This document shows positions 1,349-61,742 of a stretch of DNA of 64,000 nt, in pieces. Origin of the DNA: a virus; the IMG/VR virus record IMGVR_UViG_3300010167_000022. One strand, given 5' to 3'. Within the stretch, counting starts at the first letter, position 1, and each line of letters begins with the position of its first letter. The position numbers were made by a program, and so were the translations under genes. The notes beneath the pieces are model-generated. The model worked only from the letters and a program-made list of their open reading frames with translations, ran no database searches and was not told where the DNA came from.

Positions 1349-2044
1349 TTATACAGATAAAGATATATCCATGTATTGCGCTATTTTATCATTATAATTT
1401 TTAAGCCCTTGTTCTAATGTTACATTACCGGATACAATATCATTAACATTGCTCCATAATATGCTATTAAGTATGTTTTTATCAGATTTTGTTAATATAT
1501 TATAATTGTTGCTATTCTTGTTAAGATATTTAGCATCATCCAATTGGTACTCCATAATATCATCTGTTAATTTTACAAATTGTTCATCGAACAAATCAAC
1601 AAGTTTATTCCATGATGCTAATTCTTTTTCTGAAGCTGCGCTGTTGCATATTTGAGATAATGATTCTAGCCTACAACTCATATCTGAGAATCTATCCAAT
1701 AGTTCATCACGCTTATTTCTTGCGTTTTTATTTCTGTTTGTTTCATCTCTTTCATCGTCATCAAATGCACGGATGTTAATGCTAAATAAAACAAATGGAG
1801 CTTCCGGTTCATAGTGTTGTAATACATTAGGTACCATTTTGTATACTTCAGTACATGTTGAATTTGCTATAAACCATAATGATTTGTAATCTTCAACTTT
1901 ATCTAAATCTGTATCCCACAATCCTATTGCTTGATTCTTTGATGTAAATTCTATGTAATTTTTAAAAAACTCCTCATGACTTACTTCTCCATTATTTGCT
2001 TTGATAATTTCCGAGAAGAAATCAAATATCATTACTTCTTTCAT
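1349..2044 (-). CDS. hypothetical protein
   Basis: ORF 231 aa in minus-strand gene train. Confidence 0.5.
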   Translation of the reverse strand: MKEVMIFDFFSEIIKANNGEVSHEEFFKNYIEFTSKNQAIGLWDTDLDKVEDYKSLWFIANSTCTEVYKMVPNVLQHYEPEAPFVLFSINIRAFDDDERDETNRNKNARNKRDELLDRFSDMSCRLESLSQICNSAASEKELASWNKLVDLFDEQFVKLTDDIMEYQLDDAKYLNKNSNNYNILTKSDKNILNSILWSNVNDIVSGNVTLEQGLKNYNDKIAQYMDISLSV

Positions 2045-2085
2045 ATTATTTTACCCCCTTGTATAATATGCATTTTTTGAAATTA

Positions 2086-2598
2086 TCAATTATAAACTTT
2101 GCTTATATTAATAGCTAAATCCCACGCTGATTCAATATCATCTGTTTCATTTATACTAATTGCATTAAACATTATATTATTAGTATCTAATTGTTTTGCA
2201 ATACAATTCCATATTTTTAATATCGAGTCTTTCAACGAGACCAAACCTAGTGAAATACGATCAAAATCATCGAATATATATTTTACTACAAACCATTCTG
2301 ATTGGGTAGGGAGCATTGATAAATTTGTATTATCAACAACTCTAGCTTTATACTTTGCATAAATTAATATAAAATTTGTAATAACTTCGCTTAGCTGTTT
2401 ATTATTTTGTTTGAATTTGCAATATGATAATCTTTTGTTTGAATCTGAGTAGTAGAGATCAAGAGATTGTATCCATTCTAAAAACATAGCATTTGCTTTA
2501 TCAAACATCAAATCATATCCTTCAATTCCTTTTGTTTCATTTATAATTCCAGAATAAAAATAATCATATACTTCTTGAATATTAATTTTTTGTGCCAT
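2086..2598 (-). CDS. hypothetical protein
   Basis: ORF 170 aa; RBS AAGAG upstream. Confidence 0.5.
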   Translation of the reverse strand: MAQKINIQEVYDYFYSGIINETKGIEGYDLMFDKANAMFLEWIQSLDLYYSDSNKRLSYCKFKQNNKQLSEVITNFILIYAKYKARVVDNTNLSMLPTQSEWFVVKYIFDDFDRISLGLVSLKDSILKIWNCIAKQLDTNNIMFNAISINETDDIESAWDLAINISKVYN

Positions 2599-2795
2599 AT
2601 TTTATCACTCTTTCTAGCGCATTTCACGCCATTATAAGTGAACTACCCACAGTCTAAAGATAAAGTCTGTGGGCTTCCGTTCAATCGTATTACTTACTAC
2701 GAAGTATCAACGGCTATCCCCGGCGTTCCACTCGGTTAGGTGTTCATCCCATCAGCTAAAGCTAATGGGATTTCTCGCTAGTTATTTTAAAATAC
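2599..2795 (-). promoter_or_regulatory. GC-rich structured leader element (two hairpins, each followed by TAGTTCAC / GGGATTTCTCGCT-type flank)
   Basis: about 195 bp, visibly GC-richer than surroundings; hairpins cccacag...ctgtggg (2646-2673) and cccatcagct-aa-agctaatggg; shares gtgaactaccca and gggatttctc with the 15630 and 35714 elements. Confidence 0.35.
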
Positions 2796-3113
2796 TTACT
2801 CTATTGGCATAACCTTAATAATACCATCTGCCATGCTGTTATCAAGATGTACACTATGTCCATAAATATGAATTATTCCATCAATATTGACTTCATAAAT
2901 ATTAGAGACTTCATTTTTAATTTCATTAATAATTGCACTTATTGTATTCATTGATGAAATTATTTTTATATTATTACGTGTAAAACATTGAACCTTATCA
3001 CATAGTACATGAAGTCTATTACTTAAATTTTCACCATATTTATTTAATTCTGTATTTATATCTCCGTTATAATAATCATTTAATTCTTTTGTTGTAATAA
3101 ATGTAAAATCCAT
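2796..3113 (-). CDS. hypothetical protein
   Basis: ORF 105 aa. Confidence 0.5.
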   Translation of the reverse strand: MDFTFITTKELNDYYNGDINTELNKYGENLSNRLHVLCDKVQCFTRNNIKIISSMNTISAIINEIKNEVSNIYEVNIDGIIHIYGHSVHLDNSMADGIIKVMPIE

Positions 3114-3144
3114 TATTTATTCCTTTCTGCGTTATGTCGCCACA

Positions 3145-3372
3145 TTAGTAATTACTATCATACTTGATTAGGTTATTGTTTTCATCAACTAAAAACTTAT
3201 CCCAATGTGTCTCTGCCATAGGAAAGCAAAAAGATCTTCCAAGCACAATGTCTATATTGCCATTGTTGTCAACTCTGTATCCTTGTGCATTAACATGTTC
3301 TCTTTGTATATTGGCTCTGTTTTTATTTCTGATATTCTGATTAATAATCTCGTTAACTTTTTGACTATTCAT
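3145..3372 (-). CDS. hypothetical protein
   Basis: ORF 75 aa. Confidence 0.45.
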   Translation of the reverse strand: MNSQKVNEIINQNIRNKNRANIQREHVNAQGYRVDNNGNIDIVLGRSFCFPMAETHWDKFLVDENNNLIKYDSNY

Positions 3373-3413
3373 AACTAACTTTCACTCCTAATATTGTAAC
3401 AGATGTTATCATA

Positions 3414-8623: not shown

Positions 8624-9403
8624 TTAATCTCCGCAATGCTTATATGGGTTATATGGAAAATATGGCATTTTTGTCATCTTGTGAATTCCATCATTATGCA
8701 TTATTTGTATTTTAGCAACTACATCTGGATTAATTTCACCACCACGAAGGTATTTGTCTAATTCTGAATATGTAAATCTAAAATTCTCTTCGTCTGTTCT
8801 GCCAGTAAGACCATCCTCTGGCTTCTTAAATATTAAGTCATAATCAATACCAAGTGCCATTCCTATACGCACAACTTCATTGTTTGTTAGGCTTGCCAGC
8901 GGAGAAAAATCTCCAGCATCATCACCATACTTTGTATTCCACCCAAGATAATTTTCACTAAGATTACACGTATTAGCTACTCTGCCATTTATTTGAGCAG
9001 AAATAGCATATAACGTGGTCATTCTGATTCGAGCCGGGGTATTATTTGTAACAACTGAGTTAAGAAAATTATCATCGTCAGTACTTAATAGCTTATTAGA
9101 TACTTGACGATAAATTTCATTAACGGCATCGTATATATTGATAGTAATATTTTTAATGCCGAAGTATTTACATACTAATTCAGCAACATGCAAATCCCAC
9201 TGGCACCCTTGTGGCATGAGTACTCCGAATACTCTATCAGCGCCTAAAGCTTCAACACATAGCCCAGTAACGATTGTTGAATCTTTGCCGCCTGATATCC
9301 CAATAACAGCTTTGCTATTCATCCCATTTTTATTAAAATAATCTCTAATCCACTGTGCTAAATCGTCTTTAACCTTATCTTCATTAAATTTATACATTAG
9401 CAA
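8624..9403 (-). CDS. nadE: NH3-dependent NAD+ synthetase
   Basis: PP-loop ISGGKDST; RIRMTTLY, TKYGDDAGDFSPL and FTYSELDKYLRG align with E. coli NadE blocks; about 260 aa. Confidence 0.8.
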   Translation of the reverse strand: MLMYKFNEDKVKDDLAQWIRDYFNKNGMNSKAVIGISGGKDSTIVTGLCVEALGADRVFGVLMPQGCQWDLHVAELVCKYFGIKNITINIYDAVNEIYRQVSNKLLSTDDDNFLNSVVTNNTPARIRMTTLYAISAQINGRVANTCNLSENYLGWNTKYGDDAGDFSPLASLTNNEVVRIGMALGIDYDLIFKKPEDGLTGRTDEENFRFTYSELDKYLRGGEINPDVVAKIQIMHNDGIHKMTKMPYFPYNPYKHCGD

Positions 9404-10268
9404 CCCCCATTCTCCGCATTACAAGCCTTTCTGCTAATAACCGCGTCCTAACTATCATAAGAGCCTTACCCATCATATTCTTTCCAGCGCCATTATAAAC
9501 TCCCCAAAAATCATCGCCCCAATTGTTTGTTTCTTCCAAATATTTAAAGCCAGTGTTAAGTAGGAATGCTCTTAAATGTGCATTCTGAGAAAACTTATTA
9601 TATAATATCTCTTGAACAATCTTAACCTTTGTATCTTCCCATTCGTCTTTCATTGGGCATTGGTGACCATATTCTTTTGCCTTTGCAGGAGTAGGCGTAT
9701 TTAAAATCTTCTCTTTCCATTCTGAACAATCTGTTTTGTAATATTGTAATGCATGCTCTGCTGATTTAAATGTTATGCCATCCATTATAAATTTAGTTGT
9801 ATCAAAATTGCTTAATGGCCTATATTTCTCAAAGAATCCTTTAATATAATATTCTGTTACTTCTGTTTTATTATTGAGAACACCTGTATACTTAATAGAG
9901 CTTATGTCAAACATCGTATCAATAGGAATACGAGTCTGGCTTATTACACCTTCTTGTGTAAAATAAACTTGTATATCATCCTTCCAATATTCATTAATCT
10001 CATACTCATATAGATAGTATCCTGCGGTTTCCAATTCGTAGGCATCCATAACAGAGAACCAGAAGTTCATCTGCGACTTATCTTTGGCTCCACTATACCA
10101 ACGTTTCCCGTCTTTTCTGTATTTGTCGTCATGCCCCATTGGCATATCAGCGCAGCGTCCTTCTGTAAGTGTGTGAATAAATCCATTATAAGAGCCATCA
10201 GCGTTATACCACATACCATGTTGATTATCTTTGTGTGCTATACGATATGTTTTAATTGTTTCTTGCAA
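9390..10268 (-). CDS. NADAR (YbiA/DUF1768)-domain protein with an unassigned N-terminal domain of about 140 aa
   Basis: C-terminal FFEKYRPLSNFD...AEHALQYYK...GDDFWGVYNGAGKNMMGKALMIVR resembles NADAR; 14-nt overlap with nadE. Confidence 0.5.
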   Translation of the reverse strand: MQETIKTYRIAHKDNQHGMWYNADGSYNGFIHTLTEGRCADMPMGHDDKYRKDGKRWYSGAKDKSQMNFWFSVMDAYELETAGYYLYEYEINEYWKDDIQVYFTQEGVISQTRIPIDTMFDISSIKYTGVLNNKTEVTEYYIKGFFEKYRPLSNFDTTKFIMDGITFKSAEHALQYYKTDCSEWKEKILNTPTPAKAKEYGHQCPMKDEWEDTKVKIVQEILYNKFSQNAHLRAFLLNTGFKYLEETNNWGDDFWGVYNGAGKNMMGKALMIVRTRLLAERLVMRRMGVANV

Positions 10269-10307
10269 AAATCTTCACATCCTTTCAGTGTATTTATACA
10301 AATCTAA

Positions 10308-11888
10308 TCAAAACTTGCTATTCCATAATCTATTGCGAATAGTAGCGAAATCATCTATATTATATTGTTTGCCATCTACAAATTTCTTAACATATAAATT
10401 CCCTTCAAAATTAATAGCTTCTTCATATGTCAATTCATCTGTATATGTAATCTCGCCCAATGAATCATAATGTGCTGCAAAACAGCCTTTTTGTGATGCT
10501 TTAGCGCTATCCGTTTTTGGATTCTTTTGAATAGCAACTTCTATACCATCCATAATACAGCTAGTAGCTTTTATTGCATAACCACGGGTGTCCCGTGTGA
10601 CATATTGATAGCTTACTGAACCAATCCCAAAAAATATATTTTCTACAGATATTTTCATTTCAACACAACGTTTAAGAATTTTTTCTTGCCGTTCTCTTGT
10701 TATAGCATCTGCGTAAATCATTCTTATTTGTGAAGGAAGAACATCATACCCTTTTTTGTTTGTACTTACTCCAAATATTTTCTTTAATACTCGAAGACTG
10801 CCAATTTTTTCATACCATAAATCAGCAAGTGAATCACCACATGTAATCTTAATTGGATCGCCAGAATCGGCACGGATTACTAATGCGCCTTGTCTATTAC
10901 ATATATCATCTATTAACTTTGGTAGTATCCATGTAAGTACGCCCCAATAGTCATATGTGTCGGATACATAAGACAATGCGCCTTCTAGCTGTACATCTGT
11001 AATAAGGTATTTAATAACACACATTTCAGCGACTAGCTTAATATCAACTGGGCTACCATCTTCACGTTTAGAATTTTTATATTTATCCCATGTTATGCCT
11101 TTGTATTCTCCACCAGATAGTAACATATTTTCAAATTCTGCTATAAGTTGACATACAATGCTATGCTCTAAAGATGGAGTAGCCATATTAGTTAAGTCTT
11201 TTTCTATATCTGCGTTATAATATTTTTCTAAGAAATCTGCTGATCCCATTGTTGCTGATTTAGCAAACGATAATAAATGCCCTCCACTTGATGCCATGGC
11301 TGCTGATTCCATTTCAGCCATTCCACGCAAGCTAAAATCACTAATCATATATTTTGTTATATTTGTATCTTCGCATGTTATATCTACATATTTTTGTTGT
11401 AATGTTCTTCTATCATGCCCAGTTGTAGCAGATGTTGGAGGCATCCAGTTATGCGTTGACCATAAATCTTCAAGATACTGAGGTAGCCAACCAAAATCAG
11501 GATGTGTATTTCTAATCCAATGGTCTGGAACATTAACTGGGCAAAGTGTTCCTTCTGGCAACCCCCATATTTCGATTGGAAGATAGCCAAGCTCATAAAG
11601 TTTTCTAAATTTAGAAAAATCAGAATATCGTGGGCTAAAACATATAGAAACATTTCTTACATGTTTTTTCTCTAAATCATCTACATCCTTATAAAAGAAA
11701 TTATTATCAAACCAATCAATCATATATTGTTTGATTCTTGCTTGTTGCCCCCATATAACTGTATTTTTAGCTTCTTGCTGATACTTGTTATATCTTCCTG
11801 TCCAACCAGTAAATACATGGCTTACGCTTTTAGGTTGTAAAAAAGGATGGCAAATTTTATATCCGTCCACAATACCATATAGCCCCAT
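10308..11888 (-). CDS. nicotinamide phosphoribosyltransferase family (NAMPT/NadV, or Namat-like)
   Basis: 526 aa, size and overall sequence character of NAMPT; adjacent to the Prs-like gene. Confidence 0.7.
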   Translation of the reverse strand: MGLYGIVDGYKICHPFLQPKSVSHVFTGWTGRYNKYQQEAKNTVIWGQQARIKQYMIDWFDNNFFYKDVDDLEKKHVRNVSICFSPRYSDFSKFRKLYELGYLPIEIWGLPEGTLCPVNVPDHWIRNTHPDFGWLPQYLEDLWSTHNWMPPTSATTGHDRRTLQQKYVDITCEDTNITKYMISDFSLRGMAEMESAAMASSGGHLLSFAKSATMGSADFLEKYYNADIEKDLTNMATPSLEHSIVCQLIAEFENMLLSGGEYKGITWDKYKNSKREDGSPVDIKLVAEMCVIKYLITDVQLEGALSYVSDTYDYWGVLTWILPKLIDDICNRQGALVIRADSGDPIKITCGDSLADLWYEKIGSLRVLKKIFGVSTNKKGYDVLPSQIRMIYADAITRERQEKILKRCVEMKISVENIFFGIGSVSYQYVTRDTRGYAIKATSCIMDGIEVAIQKNPKTDSAKASQKGCFAAHYDSLGEITYTDELTYEEAINFEGNLYVKKFVDGKQYNIDDFATIRNRLWNSKF

Positions 11889-11901
11889 TTATTAACTCCT
11901 T

Positions 11902-12708
11902 TTAGTTATTTTGTAATATCTCAATTAACGGATGTTCCTCAGTGAATATAGAACGTGTTGTATATATCTTTTCTAATAATCCGCTATTAATAAGTTCACC
12001 ATTTAATATTGAATTCTCACAATGTGTGATGTATAAATATATCTTTCCAACACCCAGATTTTTTAGCTTCTTTGCTGCATATAGAAATGTTCCACCATAA
12101 CTGCAAATATCATCTGTTATTAAAATTGTTTTTCCTGTTAAGTTATGCTTTTTAGCACCTAGAACTTCTGTATCAAGTATATCTCCAGTATCCCAATTCC
12201 TATCCTTATACCCACAAATATTAGGATGCTTAATAAGATTTTCTAGTCGTTTCTTGCATCCAGAATCCGGGTAATAAAGCAAATCAGGAGTAGTCTTGTC
12301 AATAACTATATTCACAAATTTTAAATATCTATTAATATCTATATATACATTATTTATAATAGCTGGTGCTACTGGGGAATGTGGGTCAAGTATATATACA
12401 CGATCAAATCCTAATTCATTAATAACTCTTGCAAAGTATTTTAATGTAAATATATCATCTGGTTTTTCTATTCTATCTAACCTCGCATTTGGTGTATAGT
12501 CAAGATGAAGTGTGATTCGTGCATTTGGATTCTTTTCTTTTATATGCCAAACCAAATTTTGAAGAACGATTTGCTCTGTAAGGGTTTCGAAATCCCATGT
12601 CAACCTATATTGAATATTATTTATATCTTCATCTACCTTAAATCGCATTAGTAATGTCCCATCGGGGAAGAACCCGTATATATATTCTTCCCCATTCACT
12701 TTTATCAT
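11902..12708 (-). CDS. ribose-phosphate pyrophosphokinase homologue (Prs or ADPR-PP synthetase Adps-like)
   Basis: RITLHLDYTPNARLDR (Prs flexible-loop motif), VYILDPHS, PRPP-binding loop KTILITDDICSYGGT. Confidence 0.7.
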   Translation of the reverse strand: MIKVNGEEYIYGFFPDGTLLMRFKVDEDINNIQYRLTWDFETLTEQIVLQNLVWHIKEKNPNARITLHLDYTPNARLDRIEKPDDIFTLKYFARVINELGFDRVYILDPHSPVAPAIINNVYIDINRYLKFVNIVIDKTTPDLLYYPDSGCKKRLENLIKHPNICGYKDRNWDTGDILDTEVLGAKKHNLTGKTILITDDICSYGGTFLYAAKKLKNLGVGKIYLYITHCENSILNGELINSGLLEKIYTTRSIFTEEHPLIEILQNN

Positions 12709-12742
12709 TTACTTATCACATCCTATCACTTAATATTGCAAT

Positions 12743-13279
12743 CTATTGCTCGTCGTTAATAATATTTACTTGGCAACAACGCAATACTGTTAATGCCGCA
12801 AGATGGCTTTCTTCACTTACACATGCACAGCATGACGCATCTACGGTGATTTTTGTTTCTGGATACATTGCTTTAAGAATAAGTGCATTGGATACTACGC
12901 ATATGCCAGTGCATAAACCACATATTTCAATTTCATCTGCTGACATAAGCAGACTGTCAGTACAATCATTATCATTCCATCCCAAGTATCCAAATGTTGA
13001 TTTGTCGATTTTAATATCCATTTTATCTTCTAATCCGTCATATATATCCCATCCACCTGTACCTATCAAACAATGTGGGACAGGAAGATATTGCCCCTCT
13101 TGTGTATTCATATAATCGTCATTGTGCGTATCTCGTGTAAAAATAATGCTATTTTTATTTGAGCGATAATTATTAATTTTTTCTATTACATTAGGAGTAA
13201 TCTTCTGTGCCTGATCGCTCCCTAATGCCCCTGTTACAAAATCCTCTTGAACATCTACTACTATAAGAACCTTACTCAT
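12743..13279 (-). CDS. nicotinamidase / isochorismatase-family hydrolase (PncA-like)
   Basis: MSKVLIVVDVQEDF start; catalytic-Cys region ICGLCTGICV; 178 aa. Confidence 0.65.
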   Translation of the reverse strand: MSKVLIVVDVQEDFVTGALGSDQAQKITPNVIEKINNYRSNKNSIIFTRDTHNDDYMNTQEGQYLPVPHCLIGTGGWDIYDGLEDKMDIKIDKSTFGYLGWNDNDCTDSLLMSADEIEICGLCTGICVVSNALILKAMYPETKITVDASCCACVSEESHLAALTVLRCCQVNIINDEQ

Positions 13280-14073: not shown

Positions 14074-14110
14074 AAAAACCCCGTAGATATCATGTTTGCG
14101 GGGTTTTTTA
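14074..14110. terminator. bidirectional rho-independent terminator
   Basis: aaaaaCCCCG-N15-CGGGGtttttt; A-run before and T-run after the GC hairpin. Confidence 0.6.
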
Positions 14111-14186: not shown

Positions 14187-15329
14187 CTAGCCTTGCAAAA
14201 CGTTGGTTATACCATTTAACATCATTTTTTTAGCGGATGCCTCTAATTTGGCGTAAAGGTTCATAGTCGTTCCTATATCTCCATGTCCTAACCATGCTTG
14301 AATATCCTTTAAATTATAACCAAGCGCTAAAAGTAAAGAGGCTGAAGAGTGCCGCAAATCATGTAGCCGGATATGTCTCATATTATTTTTTTTCAACAGT
14401 TTCCTAAAAGCTACAGATATATAGTTTGGGTTAATTAATTCCCCAACATCATTTACACATATATACCCATCATAATCATAGCAATATGACATCCCAAAAA
14501 TTTCCTTATTGATTTCCTGCTTGGATTTTAGCTCTGTTAAAAACGCCATAAATGTATCATCTAGTGGCATTGTCCGATAGCTAGATTTTGTTTTTAAGGT
14601 GTCGGAAAATTCTAATCTATATTTGCCATCATCATTGATAGGGACTACCTTATGACCTATGAAAAATGTTCTGTTGACCCAATCTACTGCACTCCACTTT
14701 AATCCAACAATTTCAGAACGTCGCAGACCAAAATATATGGCGAACATCAAAGGAGTTTCGATTGGTGAACATTTAATAACCCCCAAGAGAGTTGCAATTT
14801 CATCCTTGTTATAGAAATCGCCTATAAATTTCTGCTTTTTTGGCCTTTCTACAAAATCAGCAGGATTCTCTTTTATTGCACGTGTTTTTTTCGCATATTG
14901 TAGGGCAGTCCTTATAAGCGTAAGGTGTTTTATAACAGTGTTAGGACTTACAAACTTTAACTTATAAGTACAATAGGCTTGGATATGTTTGGTTGTTAAA
15001 TCTAGTAAACATATTCCTTTTTGATTAAAATACGGATGTATTTGTTTTAATAATCGCTTATACCCCGCATAAGTTATAGCTTCTACATTTGCCCGGTGCA
15101 TTTCAAGCCAGTCTGTAAGAAAATCACAGAATAGAATCCTAGTATCTTGCACATTCTGAACATCGCTATATTCTTCAATTTTTTGTTTTAGGAATTGATC
15201 TGCTTTTTTCTTATTCCCTATAATGGTATAACCTGTGCTAATCCATTTCTGGGTTTGTTTCCCACCGCTGTTAAAACATATAACAGCATAATACTTATTG
15301 TTCTTTTTTTGCAAGCTTCCAGTCGTCAC
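14187..15329 (-). CDS. int: tyrosine integrase (GTG start)
   Basis: C-terminal HDLRHSSASLLLALGYNLKDIQAWLGHGDIGTTMNLYAK (HxxR...Y); AAGGAGGG RBS. Confidence 0.85.
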   Translation of the reverse strand: MTTGSLQKKNNKYYAVICFNSGGKQTQKWISTGYTIIGNKKKADQFLKQKIEEYSDVQNVQDTRILFCDFLTDWLEMHRANVEAITYAGYKRLLKQIHPYFNQKGICLLDLTTKHIQAYCTYKLKFVSPNTVIKHLTLIRTALQYAKKTRAIKENPADFVERPKKQKFIGDFYNKDEIATLLGVIKCSPIETPLMFAIYFGLRRSEIVGLKWSAVDWVNRTFFIGHKVVPINDDGKYRLEFSDTLKTKSSYRTMPLDDTFMAFLTELKSKQEINKEIFGMSYCYDYDGYICVNDVGELINPNYISVAFRKLLKKNNMRHIRLHDLRHSSASLLLALGYNLKDIQAWLGHGDIGTTMNLYAKLEASAKKMMLNGITNVLQG

Positions 15330-15629: not shown

Positions 15630-15666
15630 GTGAACTACCCATCCCCTTAAGGGGATGGGATTTCTC
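15630..15666 (-). promoter_or_regulatory. GC-rich hairpin leader element (9-bp stem CCCATCCCC / GGGGATGGG) with TAGTTCAC flank
   Basis: gtgaactacccatccccttaaggggatgggatttctc, immediately 5' of the xis RBS on the mRNA. Confidence 0.35.
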
Positions 15667-15705
15667 TACGTTGGTTTTAAAAAGCATCTATTCTTTATAT
15701 CAATC

Positions 15706-16842: not shown

Positions 16843-17154
16843 TCACTCCTTCTGTACTATATTAATAAATTTATAGTTATCACTATAATTGTTATATTGC
16901 ATAACAAGTATATAATCTCCAATTTCTACAATACGTGGACTTACAACTGCTTGGTATATTACATTAACAACTATTCTATTTCCATCTATATCAGCTATAA
17001 ATGCTATTGGCTTATACTTGTTATCAATATCAATTCTTGTAACTATAGCAATTTGCATTGCGTTTTCATCATAATCATCGGATTTATCACACCAATTTGT
17101 AGATAGTACAATAATAAATGCTATTACTAAAACAATCTTAAAAAACTCCATCAT
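16843..17154 (-). CDS. small secreted protein (signal peptide)
   Basis: ORF 103 aa; MMEFFKIVLVIAFIIVLSTNWC. Confidence 0.45.
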   Translation of the reverse strand: MMEFFKIVLVIAFIIVLSTNWCDKSDDYDENAMQIAIVTRIDIDNKYKPIAFIADIDGNRIVVNVIYQAVVSPRIVEIGDYILVMQYNNYSDNYKFINIVQKE

Positions 17155-18538
17155 TATTCTCCATCACAAGATTATATTTGTATACAACAAATGCAATTAA
17201 ACTCTCTTTGTTATTTTTGTCTGGATTATCAATTACATATTCTAAGCAATTATTTAATATCTCTCCCAGTATCTTTCCTTGTACAAATCCAATGTTGATA
17301 AGGTCATATCCATTAATAGCTAAATCTCGTATTGTGAAAGCTTCGTTGTTAAATAATATGTCATGCCATATTGTTTTAATCTCAGAAACCTTACAAACCC
17401 ATTTATCATATTCGCCAGATCCCCACCTATGTGCCTTTTTATCAATTAGCTGGAATGCGAACAATTTTATGCATAAATCATGTCCTAACTTATTCAACAA
17501 CTTCTTTGCCACATTGCGTGTTGGCTGCAGCACAAAATCATGTGCTTCAACAAGTTTTAAAACTATTTCAATTGTTTTGTTGTCAAATCGCATCCGATGC
17601 ATAATCTCTTGTGCCATTTTAACAGAATATATTTCATGTCCATAGTAGTGATTAGTTAACCGCTTATCATCAAACACACGCGCTTTAAGTTTCCCTATAT
17701 CATGTAGGAGTATTGTCATTATCAACTCAATATCGTCTGTATAGCCAAAAAATATCATATCCATAGTATGAGTAAATACATCCGTATAATGCCATATGTT
17801 ATTATGTGTTATTTGAGCAAGCCCTATAAACTCCGGTATAATACGTTTAATTATATACTCAATCATACCGCGAAGTTTAGGATAATGATAAGTATCTTTG
17901 TCTAACTTATTTATAGCACATAATATTTTTACTATCTCTGCATTTTTACGTTCCATTGAGATATTTTTAAGATTATCACCACACTCAAAAATCGCATTAA
18001 TGACTTCTTTTGAAATATCAAAATCTAAAGTAGTAGCAAATCTAATTGCTCTCATTATACGTAATGCATTTTCATTAAACCTGTTCTCTGCGTTCCCAAC
18101 AGTCTTTATTATTTTATTTTTTAAATCAGATTGTCCGCCAAATAAATCAATAATCCCATATTCATCATTATATGCCATAGCATTAATAGAAAAATCCCGG
18201 CGGCATAAATCATCTTTAATAGTATTTGAAAAATTTACTGCATTTGGTCTCCTTCCATCTCCATATGACCCATCAGCACGATAAGTGGTTATTTCATATG
18301 ATACTTTATTTAATAACACAGTCATTGTTCCATACTTCTCACCAGTTGGTATTAAGTAATATGAACTAAAAATTTCTTTTATTTCATTAGGCATTGCGTT
18401 TGTGGCTATATCCCAGTCTTTAGGCACTACTCCCAATAACGAATCTCTAACACATCCGCCTACAATATACGCTTCAAATCCATTATTATTAAGTTCGCAC
18501 ATTATATTTCGAACATCTATTGGAAGATTGATTTCCAA
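17138..18538 (-). CDS. cca: tRNA nucleotidyltransferase (CCA-adding enzyme) with C-terminal HD domain
   Basis: GGCVRDSLLG head motif near the N-terminus; LLHDIGK HD motif; 466 aa. Confidence 0.8.
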   Translation of the reverse strand: MEINLPIDVRNIMCELNNNGFEAYIVGGCVRDSLLGVVPKDWDIATNAMPNEIKEIFSSYYLIPTGEKYGTMTVLLNKVSYEITTYRADGSYGDGRRPNAVNFSNTIKDDLCRRDFSINAMAYNDEYGIIDLFGGQSDLKNKIIKTVGNAENRFNENALRIMRAIRFATTLDFDISKEVINAIFECGDNLKNISMERKNAEIVKILCAINKLDKDTYHYPKLRGMIEYIIKRIIPEFIGLAQITHNNIWHYTDVFTHTMDMIFFGYTDDIELIMTILLHDIGKLKARVFDDKRLTNHYYGHEIYSVKMAQEIMHRMRFDNKTIEIVLKLVEAHDFVLQPTRNVAKKLLNKLGHDLCIKLFAFQLIDKKAHRWGSGEYDKWVCKVSEIKTIWHDILFNNEAFTIRDLAINGYDLINIGFVQGKILGEILNNCLEYVIDNPDKNNKESLIAFVVYKYNLVMENNDGVF

Positions 18539-21617: not shown

Positions 21618-22931
21618 TTAATTATAATCTATTATTTCTTGTGCTTCTTCAATATCAGGTGATGTAGCTGAGTCTTTAATAATTCCCTCAATAACTTTGA
21701 AGTGCCAGTTTTTATGCTTAAATGCTGTAAATCTTTCTCTGTTTTCAATTCTAACAACTATGCCTTCTTTTATATGTGTTTTACCAATTGGATCGAACCC
21801 ATCACAATATTTATTTGCATGCTCCATAAGATCTTCAAATGTTGTATAAGTAAAACGTTCATATGTAGGACAATACCTAACCCCCATTTGTTCGCAACGA
21901 AGCTTCACTAATCCATATGGATACTCAACTACATAGCCATCCTCATTTGTAATTGTCATTCTATATACATAGGTTTGGCTCTCACCGTCATCACAACCAT
22001 ATGAAAAACGTGTCTTGTCACCATATTGTTTAATGAATTCTTTATCATTAACTTTTTTATTCGAGCAATCTGCCATTATAGGAGTGTTGGGGGAAACATA
22101 TCCAACAACCTCATAATAAACAGTTTCACCTTTTTGAAGTTTGCCAACAAATCTGTCATGATGCCGTTGTCGAAAAGCATTACTTCCATAGTAGCCACCA
22201 TTTAAGTCTTTTAGCACAACTCTTCTTGTTCCGCATACATATTCCCATGATTTTTTAATTTTAGGTAACAATCTTAACGCTTTAAATATTTTAACTAACC
22301 AATATGGCAAATATTTTCTTGTCTCTTTTAATGTATAAGATGTGCGTTGTGAGGTTCCATGCATCTTTAAAGTAATTTCACACTGATCTCCTTCTTTAAA
22401 AGCGTTTTTATTATATACAAGCTGTGATGTATCATAATGTTCCATAAATAAGGGAAAACTTGTTTTATCATATATTTTTTTAGATTTCTCTTTATTTTTC
22501 CCCACACTTTGTCTACGATGTTTGCCCATAGGAATATACTTTTCACAAATTAAAAGTCCATTTAATATAGTTATAGAATCTCCTTCATTAAGTATAGAAA
22601 CATCTGTAAATTTATTAAGTGAAATCAATGGCATAAATAAACCATCGCTCATTTCACCTCTTAGTTTTATAGCTTTAATATTTCGCTTTTCAGGATCAAG
22701 AAATCCACCTATTTGATTTCCATCTGCATCTTTATTACGTAGAAGATTATTTGCCGCGCAATACTCATTGCATAGTTTACCATCTATTGGGAAATAAATT
22801 CCTAATTCATCTTCTGATATATTTGTACTTACTATAACGTTGTTTCCAAAACACTCTCCAATCAGGAGTTTATCAGCATTTGTATGTCTTCTTAAGTTTT
22901 TTATTCTTGTTATATATGCGCAATAAGCCAT
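21618..22931 (-). CDS. ATP-dependent RNA ligase (Rnl2/Rnl5-like, with an N-terminal extension)
   Basis: nucleotidyltransferase motif I LKMHGTSQR (KxHGxx) at about aa 190; 437 aa. Confidence 0.6.
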   Translation of the reverse strand: MAYCAYITRIKNLRRHTNADKLLIGECFGNNVIVSTNISEDELGIYFPIDGKLCNEYCAANNLLRNKDADGNQIGGFLDPEKRNIKAIKLRGEMSDGLFMPLISLNKFTDVSILNEGDSITILNGLLICEKYIPMGKHRRQSVGKNKEKSKKIYDKTSFPLFMEHYDTSQLVYNKNAFKEGDQCEITLKMHGTSQRTSYTLKETRKYLPYWLVKIFKALRLLPKIKKSWEYVCGTRRVVLKDLNGGYYGSNAFRQRHHDRFVGKLQKGETVYYEVVGYVSPNTPIMADCSNKKVNDKEFIKQYGDKTRFSYGCDDGESQTYVYRMTITNEDGYVVEYPYGLVKLRCEQMGVRYCPTYERFTYTTFEDLMEHANKYCDGFDPIGKTHIKEGIVVRIENRERFTAFKHKNWHFKVIEGIIKDSATSPDIEEAQEIIDYN

Positions 22932-26063: not shown

Positions 26064-26342
26064 ATCAATGCAACATTTCTGCTAAATATTTATCGTTATT
26101 ACATAATGTATATATTCCAGTTGGATATTCATATATATATCCATCGTCTAGCCATGATTTAACTTTAGAATTAATAATCTCTATTGGAATACTTTTATCA
26201 AGATTGTCATACAACTGCTTTAATGAAAAAGATTTAAGCTTATAAATTACATTTAATATCTTAGCATTATATATTTCTGAATTATTAGCATTAATTTCTA
26301 ACTTATAAAATCCACCTATTTTTTTATTAAATATATTTTTTA
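26064..26342 (-). pseudogene. open frame without an ATG start, paralogous to 35570..35700 (shared ...SKVKSWLDDGYIYEYPTGIY...); possible gene fragment or fusion
   Basis: conservative protein-level substitutions between the two copies; offset -1 from the upstream 71-aa ORF; no start codon found. Confidence 0.3.
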
Positions 26343-27088: not shown

Positions 27089-28189
27089 TTATCCAATATC
27101 TCTATAAATTACATTTCGCAATATATCTCTGCGTATAGATACGCTTAATAATTTTGCGCTTGCCGCTGAACATGCATTGTTGTATCCTTCATCGTGACTT
27201 GCCCGGTCATCATTTGTATTAAAAAATCCTTTAACCCTCTCTGCGAAGTCTTCTGCGCTTATACATCTCTGAATAGCAATTATAGCCATGTACATTAATG
27301 AAACCATGTGCGTTTTTCTATTCTTTATTTTATTAGACATTTTTTTCATGTCTGCCATAATAACAAAGAATGTCTTCATATAGTCAAGTGCTTTTGTCAT
27401 TTCTTCTTCCTGCTCAGGAGTTATTTCTTGCGTCCAAAGAATATGTCTTCCGTTTTTATCGTTCATCAATGAATGGTTACTAGCGTATGCCATTATTGCT
27501 GCATCTGCCGGAATATCTTCGTCTTCCAACTTCTTTTTCTTACTATCCTTTAATACACTGGCTATCCCCGGAAGTTTTGCAAGTTTAATGAATATATGTC
27601 TACTGCATATTCTTATACGGGAAAAGTCAGCAGGGGATATAGGTTTGTTGCTATTTATTTCAATGAAAAAATTAACCTTCTCTTCATGTGTCATATTAAA
27701 AAATGTAAAAGATAATAATACAGTTGATTTTAACTTATCCTGTATATCAGTAGGTAAGTCTTTAAAATATAGTCGTGCTATTACAAAATCTTCAGCAACT
27801 CCATCTTTTTCTACACGTATAGGTGGAACATCTTTATGGATAGAAAATTCTCCATGAATAAATCCTGAGATTGTTCTAATCCTCTGCTGTCCGTCTAACG
27901 CTTCGCTAGTCTTTTCAGCTTTGTTGAAGTACAATGGTGGTATTTGGACACCTCTTATTAAGGCGCGAATAAACATTCCTTTAACAATAGGATGCCAAAC
28001 ATCACCACGTTGTTCTAAAATATCTGTAATAATAGTTCTGTTTTTAAATTTGTTTGCAACACTTGATACACTCATATCAACCTTGCTTGACTCAGGTTCT
28101 ATTACTACATATACTGGCTTTACAACATGCTCGGGCACTATCATATTTGATTTTTCTTTTGCTTTTGCTTTTGTTCTTGCTGCTGGCAT
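27089..28189 (-). CDS. DUF262 / ParB-like nuclease-domain protein (GmrS-like N-terminal domain)
   Basis: LDGQQRIRTISGF (DGQQR signature motif); 366 aa. Confidence 0.55.
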   Translation of the reverse strand: MPAARTKAKAKEKSNMIVPEHVVKPVYVVIEPESSKVDMSVSSVANKFKNRTIITDILEQRGDVWHPIVKGMFIRALIRGVQIPPLYFNKAEKTSEALDGQQRIRTISGFIHGEFSIHKDVPPIRVEKDGVAEDFVIARLYFKDLPTDIQDKLKSTVLLSFTFFNMTHEEKVNFFIEINSNKPISPADFSRIRICSRHIFIKLAKLPGIASVLKDSKKKKLEDEDIPADAAIMAYASNHSLMNDKNGRHILWTQEITPEQEEEMTKALDYMKTFFVIMADMKKMSNKIKNRKTHMVSLMYMAIIAIQRCISAEDFAERVKGFFNTNDDRASHDEGYNNACSAASAKLLSVSIRRDILRNVIYRDIG

Positions 28190-28223: not shown

Positions 28224-29279
28224 TTAAGATGTGTAACCAAATGCATACTTCCAATCGCTATAATCTTTCCTCCATCTCAATAATTTTAACATCAACTCTC
28301 CTTTGTCATTATACTCAACACGAAGATGATATGCAAGATATTTTGCAATTTCATATTCATAATTATCAATATCAGATGTAATTTTTACACCATTTATTTC
28401 TCCTTTTAGCTCACACTGATATAATCTATGAAATACACCTGATATGCGAACAGTAGAAGGAGATAGCTGTTCGCTTGATTTTGAAGTCTTATATATAACA
28501 CGTATAATACGATTTAATGAAGATAACGGAATCTGTGTTTGCTGTGTTCTTGCATTTTGCCTTAATTGTGGTCGTATTAAGTAGTCGTTATCTATTAGAG
28601 GAATCATTATATATTCTTCTGTTGTTGATTTTGTTGATCTTTCCGCCTGTGCATTTTTCTTTTCTATTCCATCAACATCTTGAAATCTAAGCCACAAATC
28701 AACTGTCTCGTCAGATAACTTTACAATATATCCACCCCCCAGCGTTATTGAATTTGTATTTAAATCAAGATCGGATTTTTTTAAATCTACAATATCATTG
28801 AATGTTAACCCGTCAAAAACCAAATGTAATACTAAACTATTTCGCATAGATGCATTAGGATAATTAACTGTATCAAGTCCATTAAAAATAATAGTTTTAA
28901 GCTGTTCATAATCCCCTAGCATCTTACTAGTGATTGTGCTTTTTTCTTTTAATGCATCTACAGTCATTATGTCAAAAGCCTTTTTGTCTTTTGTAATCCC
29001 CTTTACTAACAAAGCCCACGATGCATATCCTCTCATTGATGCTAAAAAATGAGATATTGATAAATCTCGTCTTATCCCTAGTGATAAAAATGCTATTTTT
29101 AATTCATCGTAAGTCATAAATATTATATCTGTACCATTATCGCCAGTTGAAACCTCTGCATCGTATAGTCGTTTAAAATAGTTTTCCAATGCAATTTTAT
29201 TGCTTTCCTTTTTTTCAAAATCAATGTACTCTTCTTTCAAATTCCTGTTAAACATTAATGTCCTAACTTGTTTACCCAC
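28224..29279 (-). CDS. hypothetical protein, possibly a degenerate tyrosine-recombinase-like fold
   Basis: 351 aa; RNSLVLHLVFDGLTFNDIVDLKKSDLD resembles recombinase box I; ...GVFHRLYQ...YLAYH; very uncertain. Confidence 0.45.
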   Translation of the reverse strand: MGKQVRTLMFNRNLKEEYIDFEKKESNKIALENYFKRLYDAEVSTGDNGTDIIFMTYDELKIAFLSLGIRRDLSISHFLASMRGYASWALLVKGITKDKKAFDIMTVDALKEKSTITSKMLGDYEQLKTIIFNGLDTVNYPNASMRNSLVLHLVFDGLTFNDIVDLKKSDLDLNTNSITLGGGYIVKLSDETVDLWLRFQDVDGIEKKNAQAERSTKSTTEEYIMIPLIDNDYLIRPQLRQNARTQQTQIPLSSLNRIIRVIYKTSKSSEQLSPSTVRISGVFHRLYQCELKGEINGVKITSDIDNYEYEIAKYLAYHLRVEYNDKGELMLKLLRWRKDYSDWKYAFGYTS

Positions 29280-29799: not shown

Positions 29800-30996
29800 C
29801 TAATATATACCATTATTACTTAATCCACTAAAAATATTACTTAGAAACTCATTACTATTATTCCCATGCTTTCCTTCCAGTGCATCAATAATACTTTTAT
29901 CAAATACAGGATAAATATTTTTACTTCTGAAATAATTAATTACTCTTTCTACTTCATCATCGCTGATATATGCCCCTTGTATCCTCATAGGATTCATATC
30001 ATTTTCTCTTTTAAATAGCATATCACCCTTTCCAAGTAATGATTCAGCACCTGTCCTACCTAGTGCAACCATAGAACTTTGTGGTTTATCTACTGCAAAT
30101 ACTATTTTAGTCTGCAAGTTATCTTTTATGCGGGAAGTTATAATATCAGCAGATGGTCTTTGTGTTGCTACTATTAAATGAATCCCAGCAGCTCTACTTA
30201 GCTGAGATATTTTAATTATTGCATCTTCTACTTTTTTTGATGATGACATTATAAGCTGAGATAATTCATCAATTATAACTACTATCCTATATAACTTTTT
30301 GTCATTCATATTATTCTTTTCTAATATCTCATTGTATCTATCTATATTTCTTATAGGAATATTATTTAGCTTTGCTATCTGATTTAATAATTCATATCTT
30401 CTATTTGTTTCTTCGCAAAGCCATTCTAGCATTATTTCTGCTTTTTTTTCATCTGTTATAACTGGGGCCAATAGATGTGGAATATTTTCATAAGGTGTTA
30501 ATTCCACTTTCTTTGGGTCTAATAATACAAGCCGTAATTCTTTTACTGGTTCCATTATTAAACTTGATATTAATACATTTATAAATACAGACTTGCCAGA
30601 ACCTGATGCCCCAGCGATTAATATGTTTCTTAACTCCGGTAGGCTTCCATATATTTTTTCCCCGCATTGACTTTCTCCAATTGCAAACTTTAGCGGAGCT
30701 GTTGAGCTTTTGTATTCTGAAGATCTTATAATATCTCCAATTCTCAATATCTCATTAGATTTATTAGAAACTTCTATTCCAATTGAATTATTAGCCATCT
30801 GCACAATTTGTACAGTTTCCGCTTTCAACCTTATACGTATATCTTCTTTAGCTCTTTTTAGTTTTGCCGATTTTTCGCCGTCTACCATATGAAGTTCGTA
30901 TGTTGTTGTTACACGACCTTGTATATCTCCAATTACAATTGCATTTATACCAAGCACTTTTAATATATTTTGTACTTGTGCATATTTATCAATCAT
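29800..30996 (-). CDS. FtsK/SpoIIIE-family DNA translocase motor ATPase
   Basis: Walker A LIAGASGSGKSV; Walker B VVIIDELSQL; LIVATQRPSADIITSRIKDN...GRTGAESLLGKGDML matches the FtsK motor core. Confidence 0.75.
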   Translation of the reverse strand: MIDKYAQVQNILKVLGINAIVIGDIQGRVTTTYELHMVDGEKSAKLKRAKEDIRIRLKAETVQIVQMANNSIGIEVSNKSNEILRIGDIIRSSEYKSSTAPLKFAIGESQCGEKIYGSLPELRNILIAGASGSGKSVFINVLISSLIMEPVKELRLVLLDPKKVELTPYENIPHLLAPVITDEKKAEIMLEWLCEETNRRYELLNQIAKLNNIPIRNIDRYNEILEKNNMNDKKLYRIVVIIDELSQLIMSSSKKVEDAIIKISQLSRAAGIHLIVATQRPSADIITSRIKDNLQTKIVFAVDKPQSSMVALGRTGAESLLGKGDMLFKRENDMNPMRIQGAYISDDEVERVINYFRSKNIYPVFDKSIIDALEGKHGNNSNEFLSNIFSGLSNNGIY

Positions 30997-34595: not shown

Positions 34596-35144
34596 TTATT
34601 TTGAATTAACTTTTAATTCTTCATCAAGCAGTCTCTTAACCTTATCAATTTCTTCTTTAGTATGAACAACCCCACCACTATTCATTTCTAAATACCAACG
34701 CAAAACTTGCTCTCGTGTTTTTAAATCATTTACATTTACTCGTAAATTTAACATTCTCATTCTATTTGTTCCAGTAAAATCTTTATAATAATTATCAAAT
34801 ACTTTTATCTCATTATTCATAAATTGTCGTATTGATGTAAGCCGTTGCAATCCATCTACGCATACAAAATCATTATATCTATTATCATCAATATCAACAA
34901 CAGTATGCCATGAAGGATTGTTGAGATAAATTATATTTGCAGTCCTACCACCTTGTAAAACAAACTCTATATATTTAGAACTTTGTTCATTACTCCAAAC
35001 CCTCCCACGTTGAAAATCTGGATTCAACTGCAATCCACGCTCTGATACTTCTTCATCAATGAATTCCAATAAAGATTTAAAACTATAACTACATTCCCAT
35101 TGTCCACTTTCTGTGAATTGTGGGATATCATTAAAATTTATCAT
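34596..35144 (-). CDS. DUF262 / ParB-like nuclease-domain protein (short form)
   Basis: CVDGLQRLTSIRQF (DGxQR motif); 182 aa. Confidence 0.5.
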   Translation of the reverse strand: MINFNDIPQFTESGQWECSYSFKSLLEFIDEEVSERGLQLNPDFQRGRVWSNEQSSKYIEFVLQGGRTANIIYLNNPSWHTVVDIDDNRYNDFVCVDGLQRLTSIRQFMNNEIKVFDNYYKDFTGTNRMRMLNLRVNVNDLKTREQVLRWYLEMNSGGVVHTKEEIDKVKRLLDEELKVNSK

Positions 35145-35569: not shown

Positions 35570-35700
35570 TAATTATATACCTTCCAGTTGGATATTCAAA
35601 TAAATAACCACTTTCTATCCATTGCTTAACTTTTGATTCTATAATTTCATACTTTATTTCTTTATTAAGCTTTTCATATAATTCTTGCAATGAAAAATTT
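35570..35700 (-). pseudogene. truncated paralog of 26064..26342 (...SKVKQWIESGYLFEYPTGRYIIKI), 5' end replaced by a GC-rich element
   Basis: protein-level conservation with the 26.1-kb copy; no start codon. Confidence 0.3.
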
Positions 35701-35713
35701 TTATAAGGAACAA

Positions 35714-35755
35714 GCGAGAAACCCGCTACCCTTTAGGGGCGTGGGGCATTGACAG
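35714..35755 (+). repeat. GC-rich hairpin element, inverted orientation relative to the 15630 copy
   Basis: gcgagaaacccgctaccctttaggggcgtggggcattgacag compared with gagaaatcccatccccttaaggggatgggtagttcac. Confidence 0.4.
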
Positions 35756-35762
35756 AATATTT

Positions 35763-35791
35763 ATTATACCATATCTATTGTTTATTGTCAA
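35763..35791 (-). promoter_or_regulatory. perfect consensus sigma70 promoter TTGACA-N17-TATAAT
   Basis: revcomp reads catTTGACAataaacaatagatatggTATAAT. Confidence 0.6.
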
Positions 35792-61070: not shown

Positions 61071-61742
61071 CTATGCTGTTCTATATCCTACGCCGCTTTT
61101 AGTCTTAGACTCGATAATTTTCCCATCTGCTAATAACGCAATAAATAATTCATTGATATACAGCAATTCTATGTCGCTACTAGCCCGCCCAATATTACAG
61201 TCTATCCGTTTAACTCTGAATTTTTCTCTTATATTTTCTAGTGGCTTCCATGTTGCAGTAATATAAAGATTTTTACGCTTTGTTTTAAACTGATTGATAA
61301 TTTCATTTTCAATATCACTTTTCTTAGCCTCAAGATATGCATAATATTCTTCGTCAGACATATCATGTAGAACGCCATAGATATATGTCTCTTGATACAC
61401 AAAGAATTGTCCATTTGACAGTATTTGTTCGACTTCTTTAATTAGCCCAATTTCAACAGCTCCACCTACTTCCATCGGGTGAAGGTATAATTTGCTTTTT
61501 CCTTTAATAGCATTTGGACATGATGATGAAAATCTAGCAAGTGTTATTGTCCATCCAGCATCTATAAATATTTGTTGTATTTCTTTATTAAATCCTTCTA
61601 TAGATTCAGACGAACATCCTTGCCAACCGCTACCCCACTTATAGCCACTATCTATTCTAAAATGTACATTCCTATAATATTCCATATTATCCCAACTTTC
61701 TAATATTTTAATAGAAGACAGCTTTGATTCAAACTCAATCAC
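61071..61742 (-). CDS. hypothetical protein
   Basis: ORF 223 aa. Confidence 0.5.
   Translation of the reverse strand: MIEFESKLSSIKILESWDNMEYYRNVHFRIDSGYKWGSGWQGCSSESIEGFNKEIQQIFIDAGWTITLARFSSSCPNAIKGKSKLYLHPMEVGGAVEIGLIKEVEQILSNGQFFVYQETYIYGVLHDMSDEEYYAYLEAKKSDIENEIINQFKTKRKNLYITATWKPLENIREKFRVKRIDCNIGRASSDIELLYINELFIALLADGKIIESKTKSGVGYRTA

Follow-up and report, generated by a model that had tools for sequence, protein, structure and literature searches.

The 64,000-nucleotide window studied here (IMG/VR virus record IMGVR_UViG_3300010167_000022) carries three related GC-rich hairpin loci, designated A, B and C (Table 1), which are very probably the non-autonomous remains of an insertion sequence (IS) of the IS200/IS605 family, of the tnpA + tnpB (IS605) type and of the subgroup with a TTTAT-like transposon-adjacent motif (TAM) and a TTCAC transposon-encoded motif (TEM). 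The copies were classed as non-autonomous derivatives rather than as IS because no transposase gene is encoded. Copy B, located in the leader 2599–2795 of a 170-aa open reading frame (ORF), retains the complete cis-acting set of such an element and no more, namely both ends, their hairpins, the first codons of tnpA, a scaffold segment and the TTCAC boundary; a protein gene within it is impossible, as its 149 nt leave no room. Elements of this general kind are known as palindrome-associated transposable elements (PATEs), and B and its two phage homologues (on the IMG/VR sequences L003 and L008) keep both ends, contain no gene and have related autonomous elements, as PATEs do. The hairpin loci are derivatives of a known mobile element and not a new RNA class.

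The sequence-only reading of this DNA had described a hairpin family at these three positions, and sequence inspection, shuffles and a covariance model all upheld it. In a window of 28.9% GC, the richest 30-mers of B and C (both 0.67) jointly hold the top rank and that of A reaches 0.57, in agreement with the earlier description of the loci as the most GC-rich non-coding spots; the 9-bp perfect stem described for A is likewise present (CCCATCCCC/GGGGATGGG at 15638–15659). The composite hairpin-element pattern had an expectation of 0.00 occurrences in shuffles, and the 5' box GCGAGAAATCCC, with up to two mismatches allowed, was seen five times against 0.91 expected, a count of at least five being reached in 0/100 shuffles. 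Among the hairpin units, both sides were changed in 4/9 pairs, with the observed score met by 0/500 shuffles. Two details are revised here. The conserved unit reaches 17 nt beyond the hairpin on its 5' side, to TTTAA or TTTAT; and B, taken for an expanded or duplicated hairpin, is instead one composite element with five helices.

A covariance model, R1, was built solely from the three phage long forms (B and the copies on L003 and L008). Searched against the 64 kb, it recovered A and C (scores in Table 1) and found no loci beyond these three, and a scan of the same 64 kb for GC-rich hairpins gave just three further sites, one of which is the terminator beside the integrase gene. Rfam, in which the earlier reading had suggested looking for homologues, returned nothing at the three loci when all 4227 families were applied at gathering score, and only three chance-level matches (E 0.9–7) at E values up to 10 in the interval 2560–2830.

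The family assignment came from a plasmid. When B was compared with the PLSDB plasmids by blastn, the single match was that of its hairpin 1, 26/26 nt, to a site on the Butyrivibrio proteoclasticus plasmid pCY360. An annotated tnpB ends 128 nt upstream of this site, and the element to which both belong includes tnpA as well; Pfam assigned the proteins of this element to Y1_Tnp (3.6e-33) and OrfB_IS605/TNB/HTH. The match concerns the right-end hairpin of the plasmid element and the left-end hairpin of B. The right end of the plasmid element reads GCAAGAAT-CCCATTAGC TTTA GCTGATGGG-AGTGTCAAT and its left end TTTAT-ATAACTCTCACGGCTGAAAA-CCCATCAAGC TTTA GCTTATGGG-ATGAAAGCC, the ATG of the latter being the annotated tnpA start; the 5' flank of B aligns with this left end over 55 columns, including ATGAA. 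At the pCY360 locus (L048) the tnpA ATG, at position 572, abuts the left-end hairpin (GGGATGAAAGCC), and the same arrangement was found at the left end of the element in Geobacillus virus E3, which is also matched by R1.

With the Butyrivibrio TnpB as query, 619 phage records with homologues were identified, from which 11 records were fetched and 12 TnpB loci tested. R1 gave a match at 10/12 of these Bacillota phage loci, with E values between 8e-8 and 0.09; every match lay on the tnpB-sense strand and ran from the last tnpB codons through the right end, none of these sequences having been used in building the model; on the Butyrivibrio locus it matched the right-end hairpin alone. In the alignment of the R1 matches, which was fitted to the model, compensatory change was present in 32/39 pairs; the observed score was met by 0/500 shuffles, and 92.6% of cells paired, compared with 35–46% when the partners were slid. 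Helices P3, P4 and P4b were 96–100% paired, with compensatory changes. The right-end tail is GTAGTTCAC, identically, in Clostridium phage c-st and EFP01, GTAGTTCAA in phages BSP21, iF6 and HGP05, and GGGTAGTTCAC in copies A and B. In complete elements, the right-end element RNA (reRNA) is encoded by the 3' end of tnpB together with the right end and continues for ~16 nt into the flank (PMC8612924). Judged by sequence, the core of B appears to be the homologue of the 3' part of this omega RNA/reRNA scaffold segment: the 3' scaffold helices are homologous and covary, and the 5' part, which lies deeper in tnpB, is absent. The parts of each copy are listed in Table 1.

Table 1. Positions, strands and grounds for assignment of the three hairpin loci, their parts and their immediate context in the window.
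Feature	Position	Strand	Basis
Copy B, protein-less IS200/IS605 derivative, PATE-like	2638–2786	−	Five-helix consensus; R1 175 bits; homologues
TAM TTTAA of B, directly 5' of left end	2787–2791	−	Same position in all phage copies
Left-end spacer of B, 17 nt	2770–2786	−	Precedes left-end hairpin
Left-end subterminal hairpin of B, CCCATTAGC TTTA GCTGATGGG	2748–2769	−	26/26 match to Butyrivibrio pCY360 hairpin
ATGAACAC, remnant of tnpA start and first codons, then internal deletion junction	2740–2747	−	Comparison with L048 and E3
Structured core of B, helices P3 and P4	2674–2739	−	Homologous to tnpB 3' end and tnpB-to-right-end spacer
Right-end subterminal hairpin of B, CCCACAGAC ... GTCTGTGGG	2646–2673	−	Aligned with known right-end hairpins
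Right-end tail of B, TAGTTCAC	2638–2645	−	Ends in TEM TTCAC (2638–2642), the transposon boundary
Copy A, 47 nt: left-end spacer, hairpin 15638–15659, tail TAGTTCAC	15630–15676	−	R1 E 0.004
TAM TTTAA of A	15677–15681	−	17 nt before hairpin foot
TEM TTCAC of A	15630–15634	−	Right-end boundary
Copy C, 49 nt, imperfect hairpin 35722–35745	35705–35753	+	R1 E 0.0058
TAM TTTAT of C	35700–35704	+	17 nt before hairpin foot
TEM-like TTGAC of C	35749–35753	+	Right-end side
Consensus sigma-A-type promoter, TTGACA, 17 nt, TGnTATAAT	35763–35791	−	12/12; abuts right-end side of C; context, not part of element
Truncated paralogue of small ORF 26064–26342	35570–35704	−	Homology ends at TAM/left-end junction of C

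A second line of evidence is provided by the end motifs. The TAM and TEM of ISGst2, TTTAT and TTCAC, differ at positions 3 and 5; DNA guides in its left and right ends pair with them, and protein-less PATE-like copies exist (PMC10055086). The distance from TAM to hairpin foot is exactly 17 nt in A, B and C, and in the five phage copies the TAM reads TTTAA (B, A and L008), TTTAT (C) or TTCAA (L003), each at this same distance; in the Butyrivibrio (L048) and Geobacillus virus E3 (L054) elements, TTTAT stands 18–20 nt before the foot. The TEM of B, A, L003 and L008 is that of ISGst2, and none of the copies is flanked by a direct repeat, nor are there consistent target-site duplications. With the guide defined as the 5 nt before each hairpin, guide position 5 and motif position 5 form a Watson-Crick pair in 20/21 ends of two-ended elements (B, L003 and L008 included), and guide position 2 and motif position 3 do so in 19/21. 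The guide of A fits its TAM and not its TEM, and the right-end side fails at both positions in A and in C alike. B, L003 and L008, with their fitting guide/motif pairs, look transposition-competent; A and C look immobile, given the misfit on their right-end side.

The structure of B was examined on both strands. A hairpin scan returned 2646–2673 and 2746–2771, two hairpins that share the same orientation, and the consensus of B, L003 and L008 comprises a closing helix (GAACU/AGUUC), hairpin 1, a CCGAGUG-GAA-CGCCGG hairpin, a two-part helix and hairpin 2. Complementarity between the ends is limited to 5–6 nt (GAACTA/TAGTTC), and there are no long terminal inverted repeats. The leader 2599–2795 folds at −63 kcal/mol (z = −5.4). 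The sense strand is more stable than the antisense strand in both B (−50.1 vs −42.6 kcal/mol) and L003 (−50.8 vs −43.7 kcal/mol), and the G.U pairs of the five-helix consensus are compatible with the sense (top) strand only.

These strand data bear on the reading of the hairpins as ordinary intrinsic terminators of antisense (plus-strand) transcripts, which we regard as extremely improbable. Copy A does score as terminator-like on the plus strand, where its 9-bp stem is followed by ATTTCTCTAC, and C is followed in the gene sense by TTTCTCGCTTGTTCC. However, A qualifies on the non-coding strand only, nearly all window ORFs and 10/11 near-consensus sigma-A promoters lie on the minus strand, and no intrinsic terminator was called in 2000–3400, where B forms a five-helix element whose G.U pairs favour the other strand; the hairpins are, moreover, explained by homology to IS ends. 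The earlier statement that no copy is followed by a U-tract in the gene sense is right for A and B but not for C, which runs into a moderately T-rich tract, and its preference for a small mobile element resembling a miniature inverted-repeat transposable element over simple terminators is supported by the homology and model searches, which point to non-autonomous IS200/IS605 derivatives.

The strand bias would equally suit a domesticated cis-acting leader RNA that protects the 5' end from RNase J1/Y-type decay, or that serves xis and the 170-aa ORF as a site of processing or a translational operator, a reading we consider unlikely. Orientation in the gene sense is shared by 4/5 phage copies, including all three long ones, the tail of A, within the xis-like gene's leader, runs straight into GAAGGAG and ATG, the leader of B folds with the low z score given above, and the G.U pairs suit the transcribed strand. 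Yet the transcribed strand is also the transposon top strand, so that the strand evidence does not discriminate between the two; C is oppositely oriented, the genes downstream of the copies are unrelated to one another, and no copies occur at the window's other consensus promoters or leaders. The TAM, the 17-nt spacer, the lower stem and the TEM are all explained by transposase recognition. Of the earlier proposal of an RNA or protein recognition hairpin, the part concerning a protein is retained: by homology, the recognising protein would be TnpA on single-stranded DNA and not a translational repressor, and neither a translational operator nor an RNA nuclease site is needed.

Two further sequence features overlap B. 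A 10/12 promoter-like site at 2631–2658 (minus strand) combines TTTAGA, in the right-end hairpin loop, with TATAAT, in the outside flank, 16 nt apart; it would read into the 170-aa gene and may be a hybrid promoter created by insertion. An antisense 47-aa ORF with a GTG start (2669–2812, plus strand) is open in all three long copies by one account, with a stop in L008 recorded by another; the three window/L003 substitutions in helix P4 are synonymous in this frame, and the indel is of 6 nt. It was rejected as a gene and taken as coincidental, as it has no Shine-Dalgarno sequence, an unconserved C-terminus, a stop in L008 and no match among 5.8 billion proteins.

Copies A and C are collapsed relics, consisting of a left-end spacer, one hairpin and a right-end tail, and are not typical PATEs. 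C folds at −15.1 kcal/mol on the plus strand vs −10.8 kcal/mol on the minus strand and, as described earlier, is inverted (related unit at 35714–35755) and adjoins a consensus promoter, which lies on the opposite strand and directly upstream in the gene sense. The accompanying proposal, of a gene truncated through the insertion of C, holds in part. Homology of 35570–35704 to the small ORF at 26064–26342 (local alignment score 88 vs 22 on average for shuffled sequences, 0/300 of which reached it) stops at the TAM/left-end junction of C at 35704, but the other flank, which scores at random level against that ORF, holds no remainder of the gene. Because the homology stops at the junction and the far flank is unrelated, C marks a junction at which the 5' third of the ORF was lost rather than a simple insertion, and a deletion or rearrangement appears from the sequence to have accompanied its insertion. 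Both members of the paralogue pair end in ...EYPTG(I/R)Y..., and the 35570–35704 copy, which has neither the N-terminal third nor a ribosome-binding site, is probably a pseudogene.

The position of C recalls the promoter early stem-loops (PeSLs) of T4-type phages, GC-rich intergenic stem-loops found in ORFan-rich segments at gene replacement junctions (PMC2839356), and the loci might accordingly be recombination linker cassettes, promoter plus stem-loop units that shuffle ORFan genes by homologous recombination. The window is ORFan-rich, and C adjoins a 12/12 promoter exactly where the paralogue loses its 5' third. PeSLs, however, have a strong sigma-70 promoter fused to the stem-loop and number ~50 per genome (PMC2839356), whereas here there are three copies only, just C lies near a promoter, A and B have no attached consensus promoter, and nine other strong minus-strand promoters carry no hairpin. 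The sequence homology is to IS ends and not to promoters, and we consider this explanation highly improbable.

Still less credible, to the point of being barely worth entertaining, is a relationship to solitary CRISPR-repeat mimics (RNA anti-CRISPRs, Racrs), described as solitary repeat units in viral genomes (PMC10651486). As palindromic units of 37 nt that occur with conserved flanks in phage DNA, the hairpins have the general appearance of such mimics, but their upper stems differ between copies, which would be intolerable for the mimic of one repeat, and the flanks are left-end and right-end features of IS200/IS605 elements. To our knowledge, the units resemble no CRISPR repeat type. Several other candidates were rejected: a link to a group I intron or homing endonuclease, as the element is too small and otherwise explained; a kink-turn in P4, which misfits in register and is broken in L008; an attP or recombinase site, as the stems differ between copies; and a phage-specific promoter at TTTTAAAAT, as the T of the −10 box is missing in most copies. 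An integron attC site was considered and dropped.

For the IS200/IS605 derivatives, mobilisation would need a partner in trans, which is assumed here because neither a Y1 transposase nor TnpB is encoded in the window. A Y1 HUH transposase, TnpA, would come from a complete element located in the host or in another part of the phage and would bind both hairpins on the single-stranded top strand, the cleavage sites being located through pairing of the 5 nt before each hairpin with TAM or TEM. A single-stranded circle would be excised and re-inserted 3' of TTTAW, with no target duplication. The location in leaders may reflect the abundance of TTTAW in AT-rich intergenic leaders, where insertions would be tolerated. 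With B in the gene sense, read-through would yield transcripts in which an omega-RNA-like scaffold precedes the flanking leader, a potential guide.

Such a transcript might be a functional trans-acting guide RNA, loading TnpB from the host or from another element and targeting the TTTAA-flanked empty allele (predicted target TTTAA + TTATAATGGCGTGAAA), with homing or retention among co-infecting phages, or titration of host TnpB, as the outcome. The published mechanism has exactly matching geometry (PMC8612924; PMC10055086), the scaffold helices beside the right end are conserved with covariation, and read-through is to be expected from three long copies that all lie in the gene sense. The part of the scaffold deeper in tnpB is, however, missing, with the left-end hairpin in its place, and no TnpB was found in accessible phage sequence; we rate a guide function as quite unlikely. 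By analogy with the same mechanism, B, L003 and L008 might even be working gene-less guide-RNA cassettes that use host IS605 TnpB against TTTAA-flanked empty alleles of co-infecting phages, or decoys that neutralise host TnpB-type nucleases, a conjecture we hold to be decidedly unlikely. If it were true, they would constitute a gene-less guide cassette, an element spreading by RNA-guided homing without encoding a protein.

Relatives were sought in several collections. IMG/VR, scanned by exact patterns, yielded homologues of B at 92% identity (L003/L027) and at 87–90% (L008/L047), the L008 copy carrying a 66-nt AAT-rich insertion at the internal deletion junction. The 13 other IMG/VR matches to the pattern AACTAGCGAGAAAYCC were coding-sequence coincidences, leaving L003 and L008 as the only true homologues. 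A weak R1 match in L047 (2248–2337) was rejected, as it belongs to a different, repeat-containing leader (L047 2180–2300), in which two copies of a 34-nt direct repeat, GCGGCTGATAAATGGTCGGGATAAAAATATTGTT, precede a GC-rich hairpin, GGCTCCATC TTTT GATGGGGCC, with an ORF just beyond it; this leader is unrelated to IS ends. The long element thus occurs in three non-homologous contexts, the flanks of L003 and L008 having neither DNA nor protein similarity to the window. A single scan each of the GTDB genomes and the JGI metagenomes gave GC-rich chance matches, and megablast/blastn of the window, A and B against the INPHARED phages gave chance matches alone. Searches through flanking proteins brought no relatives, the 170-aa gene being an ORFan and the neighbours of the L003 and L008 copies lacking relatives, and ten phages with an RNA ligase at 49–62% identity had no copy near the ligase.

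The window belongs to a large temperate Bacillota phage (with an SPbeta-like YorH, Pol III alpha, an integrase and a xis-like gene) and is contained, in reverse orientation, in the near-identical 162-kb ENA contig ERZ27257295:k141_78244. Low-GC Clostridia, for instance Lachnospiraceae such as Butyrivibrio, are candidate hosts. The predicted empty-site junctions, marked by a slash, are ...GTATTTTAA/TTATAATGGCG for B, ...GCTTTTTAA/GAAGGAGCG for A and ...AATTTTTAT/AGAATATTT for C. Logan contigs from 2–3 samples break off inside the 3' arm of the left-end hairpin (...TTTAGCT) and resume precisely with the scaffold module (CTAACCGAG...). The two break points, common to independent assemblies (position 1 of L024/L025 and position 3360 of L026, equivalent to 2739 and 2755 in the window, the contigs being separated by 14 nt), coincide with the points at which window-type and L008-type copies diverge. 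Such contig breaks are what repeated IS ends in the same community would be expected to produce, and they imply further copies or variants in those samples.

Several results count against the assignment to the IS200/IS605 family. Only three long copies were present in all collections searched, none of which yielded an autonomous element sharing this core sequence. Neither a Y1 transposase nor TnpB was encoded among the ~110 window ORFs or in 10 kb of extra flank. The variation in copy number or position between close relatives that the sequence-only reading had named as a sign of mobility was not seen: the near-identical assemblies, which come from several samples, all keep A, B and C unchanged, with no empty-site allele or presence/absence difference among them. 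The 5:5 and 2:3 pairing register is our own reading of the sequences, guided by the published difference between TAM and TEM (the covariation as such is present in the sequences), and the pair counts lean towards structure, since the alignment concerned (A5) was fitted to the model. Finally, the gene-sense orientation of 4/5 copies could also reflect selection at the RNA level.

Additional observations were made on the phage itself. A short GIY-YIG endonuclease (phrog_35456) is encoded at 844–1344, 1.3 kb downstream of B, and a truncated GIY-YIG homologue (113 aa, 47% identity over 30 aa) at L008 2835–3176, immediately upstream of the L008 copy; this proximity may be fortuitous, or spots that tolerate insertion may be used by selfish elements of two kinds. 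The segment 14003–14186, which adjoins the tyrosine integrase gene (14187–15329) on its downstream side, contains part of a tRNA-like sequence (29.2 bits with the Rfam tRNA model, of which positions 8–63 are covered, with no gene called by ARAGORN) and a bidirectional terminator hairpin (14074–14108), and looks like a phage attachment site with the 3' part of a host tRNA gene. A second tyrosine recombinase with an MrpR-like N-terminal domain (28224–29279) adjoins an FtsK/SpoIIIE-type ATPase (29800–30996) and a GmrSD_N-domain protein (27089–28189), and a second GmrSD_N protein is encoded at 34596–35144. A cluster for salvage and repair of nicotinamide adenine dinucleotide (NAD+) at 8624–13279, comprising NAD synthase, a NADAR-domain protein, nicotinamide phosphoribosyltransferase, a protein resembling phosphoribosyl pyrophosphate synthetase and an isochorismatase-family protein (possible nicotinamidase), may serve as counter-defence against NAD-depleting systems. 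A CCA-adding enzyme and an RNA ligase, the latter sharing 57% identity with the ligases of Bacillus phages Kirov, Thrax and PBC2, are encoded at 17138–18538 and 21618–22931; the window contains no tRNA genes, and the two enzymes suggest a capacity for tRNA repair. The ENA contig carries a 204-aa gene (L041 3150–3764) where the window (61071–61742) and a Logan contig carry a 223-aa gene, which is a gene replacement between close relatives.

Among known systems, the closest are the PATE-like ISGst elements of Geobacillus stearothermophilus and the PATEs of Haloquadratum, which likewise have no coding capacity and one subterminal hairpin per end, on the same strand. With the former, the window copies share the TTTAT-type TAM, the TTCAC TEM, guides that covary with TAM and TEM and an omega-RNA-type region beside the right end; they differ in being carried by a large temperate phage whose host is a low-GC member of the Bacillota, instead of by a bacterial chromosome, in having one two-ended copy in 64 kb and in the junction of B, which keeps the tnpA start codon. 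The complete IS605-type elements of pCY360, Geobacillus virus E3, c-st, Bacillus phage BSP21 and Enterococcus phage EFP01 show the homologous left-end hairpin with its abutting ATG, homologous P3/P4 helices and a right-end hairpin with a GTAGTTCA(C/A) tail. They carry tnpB and some of them tnpA, whereas the window copies carry neither, and beyond the 26/26 hairpin and short end motifs the likeness is at the level of structure and motif, not of primary sequence. Copies A and C resemble repetitive extragenic palindromes (REPs), which are mobilised by REP-associated tyrosine transposases (RAYTs), in being single GC-rich intergenic hairpins with a conserved flank motif and kinship to IS200/IS605 ends; REPs, in contrast, have a 5' GTAG, hundreds of copies and a dedicated RAYT gene, while the window has just two such copies, with IS605-type flanks and without a RAYT.

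What appeared to be a new family of structured leaders is thus explained as known selfish DNA, with no new RNA class needed: the type of element is ordinary and the host genome new. The loci provide a concrete example of protein-less IS200/IS605 derivatives in a large temperate Bacillota phage with the full set of cis signals (TAM, guides, hairpins and TEM) retained. In several TnpB lineages left unflagged by Rfam in this analysis, the covariance model built from these relics picks out the stretch between the tnpB 3' end and the right end, in which the TnpB guide RNA is encoded. The loci also serve as a warning to annotators that, in low-GC phages, GC-rich hairpins that stand after TTTAW and are followed by GTAGTTCAC are transposon ends and not regulators. 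If the long copies were transcribed into functional guides, they would offer a minimal system for studying TnpB in trans.

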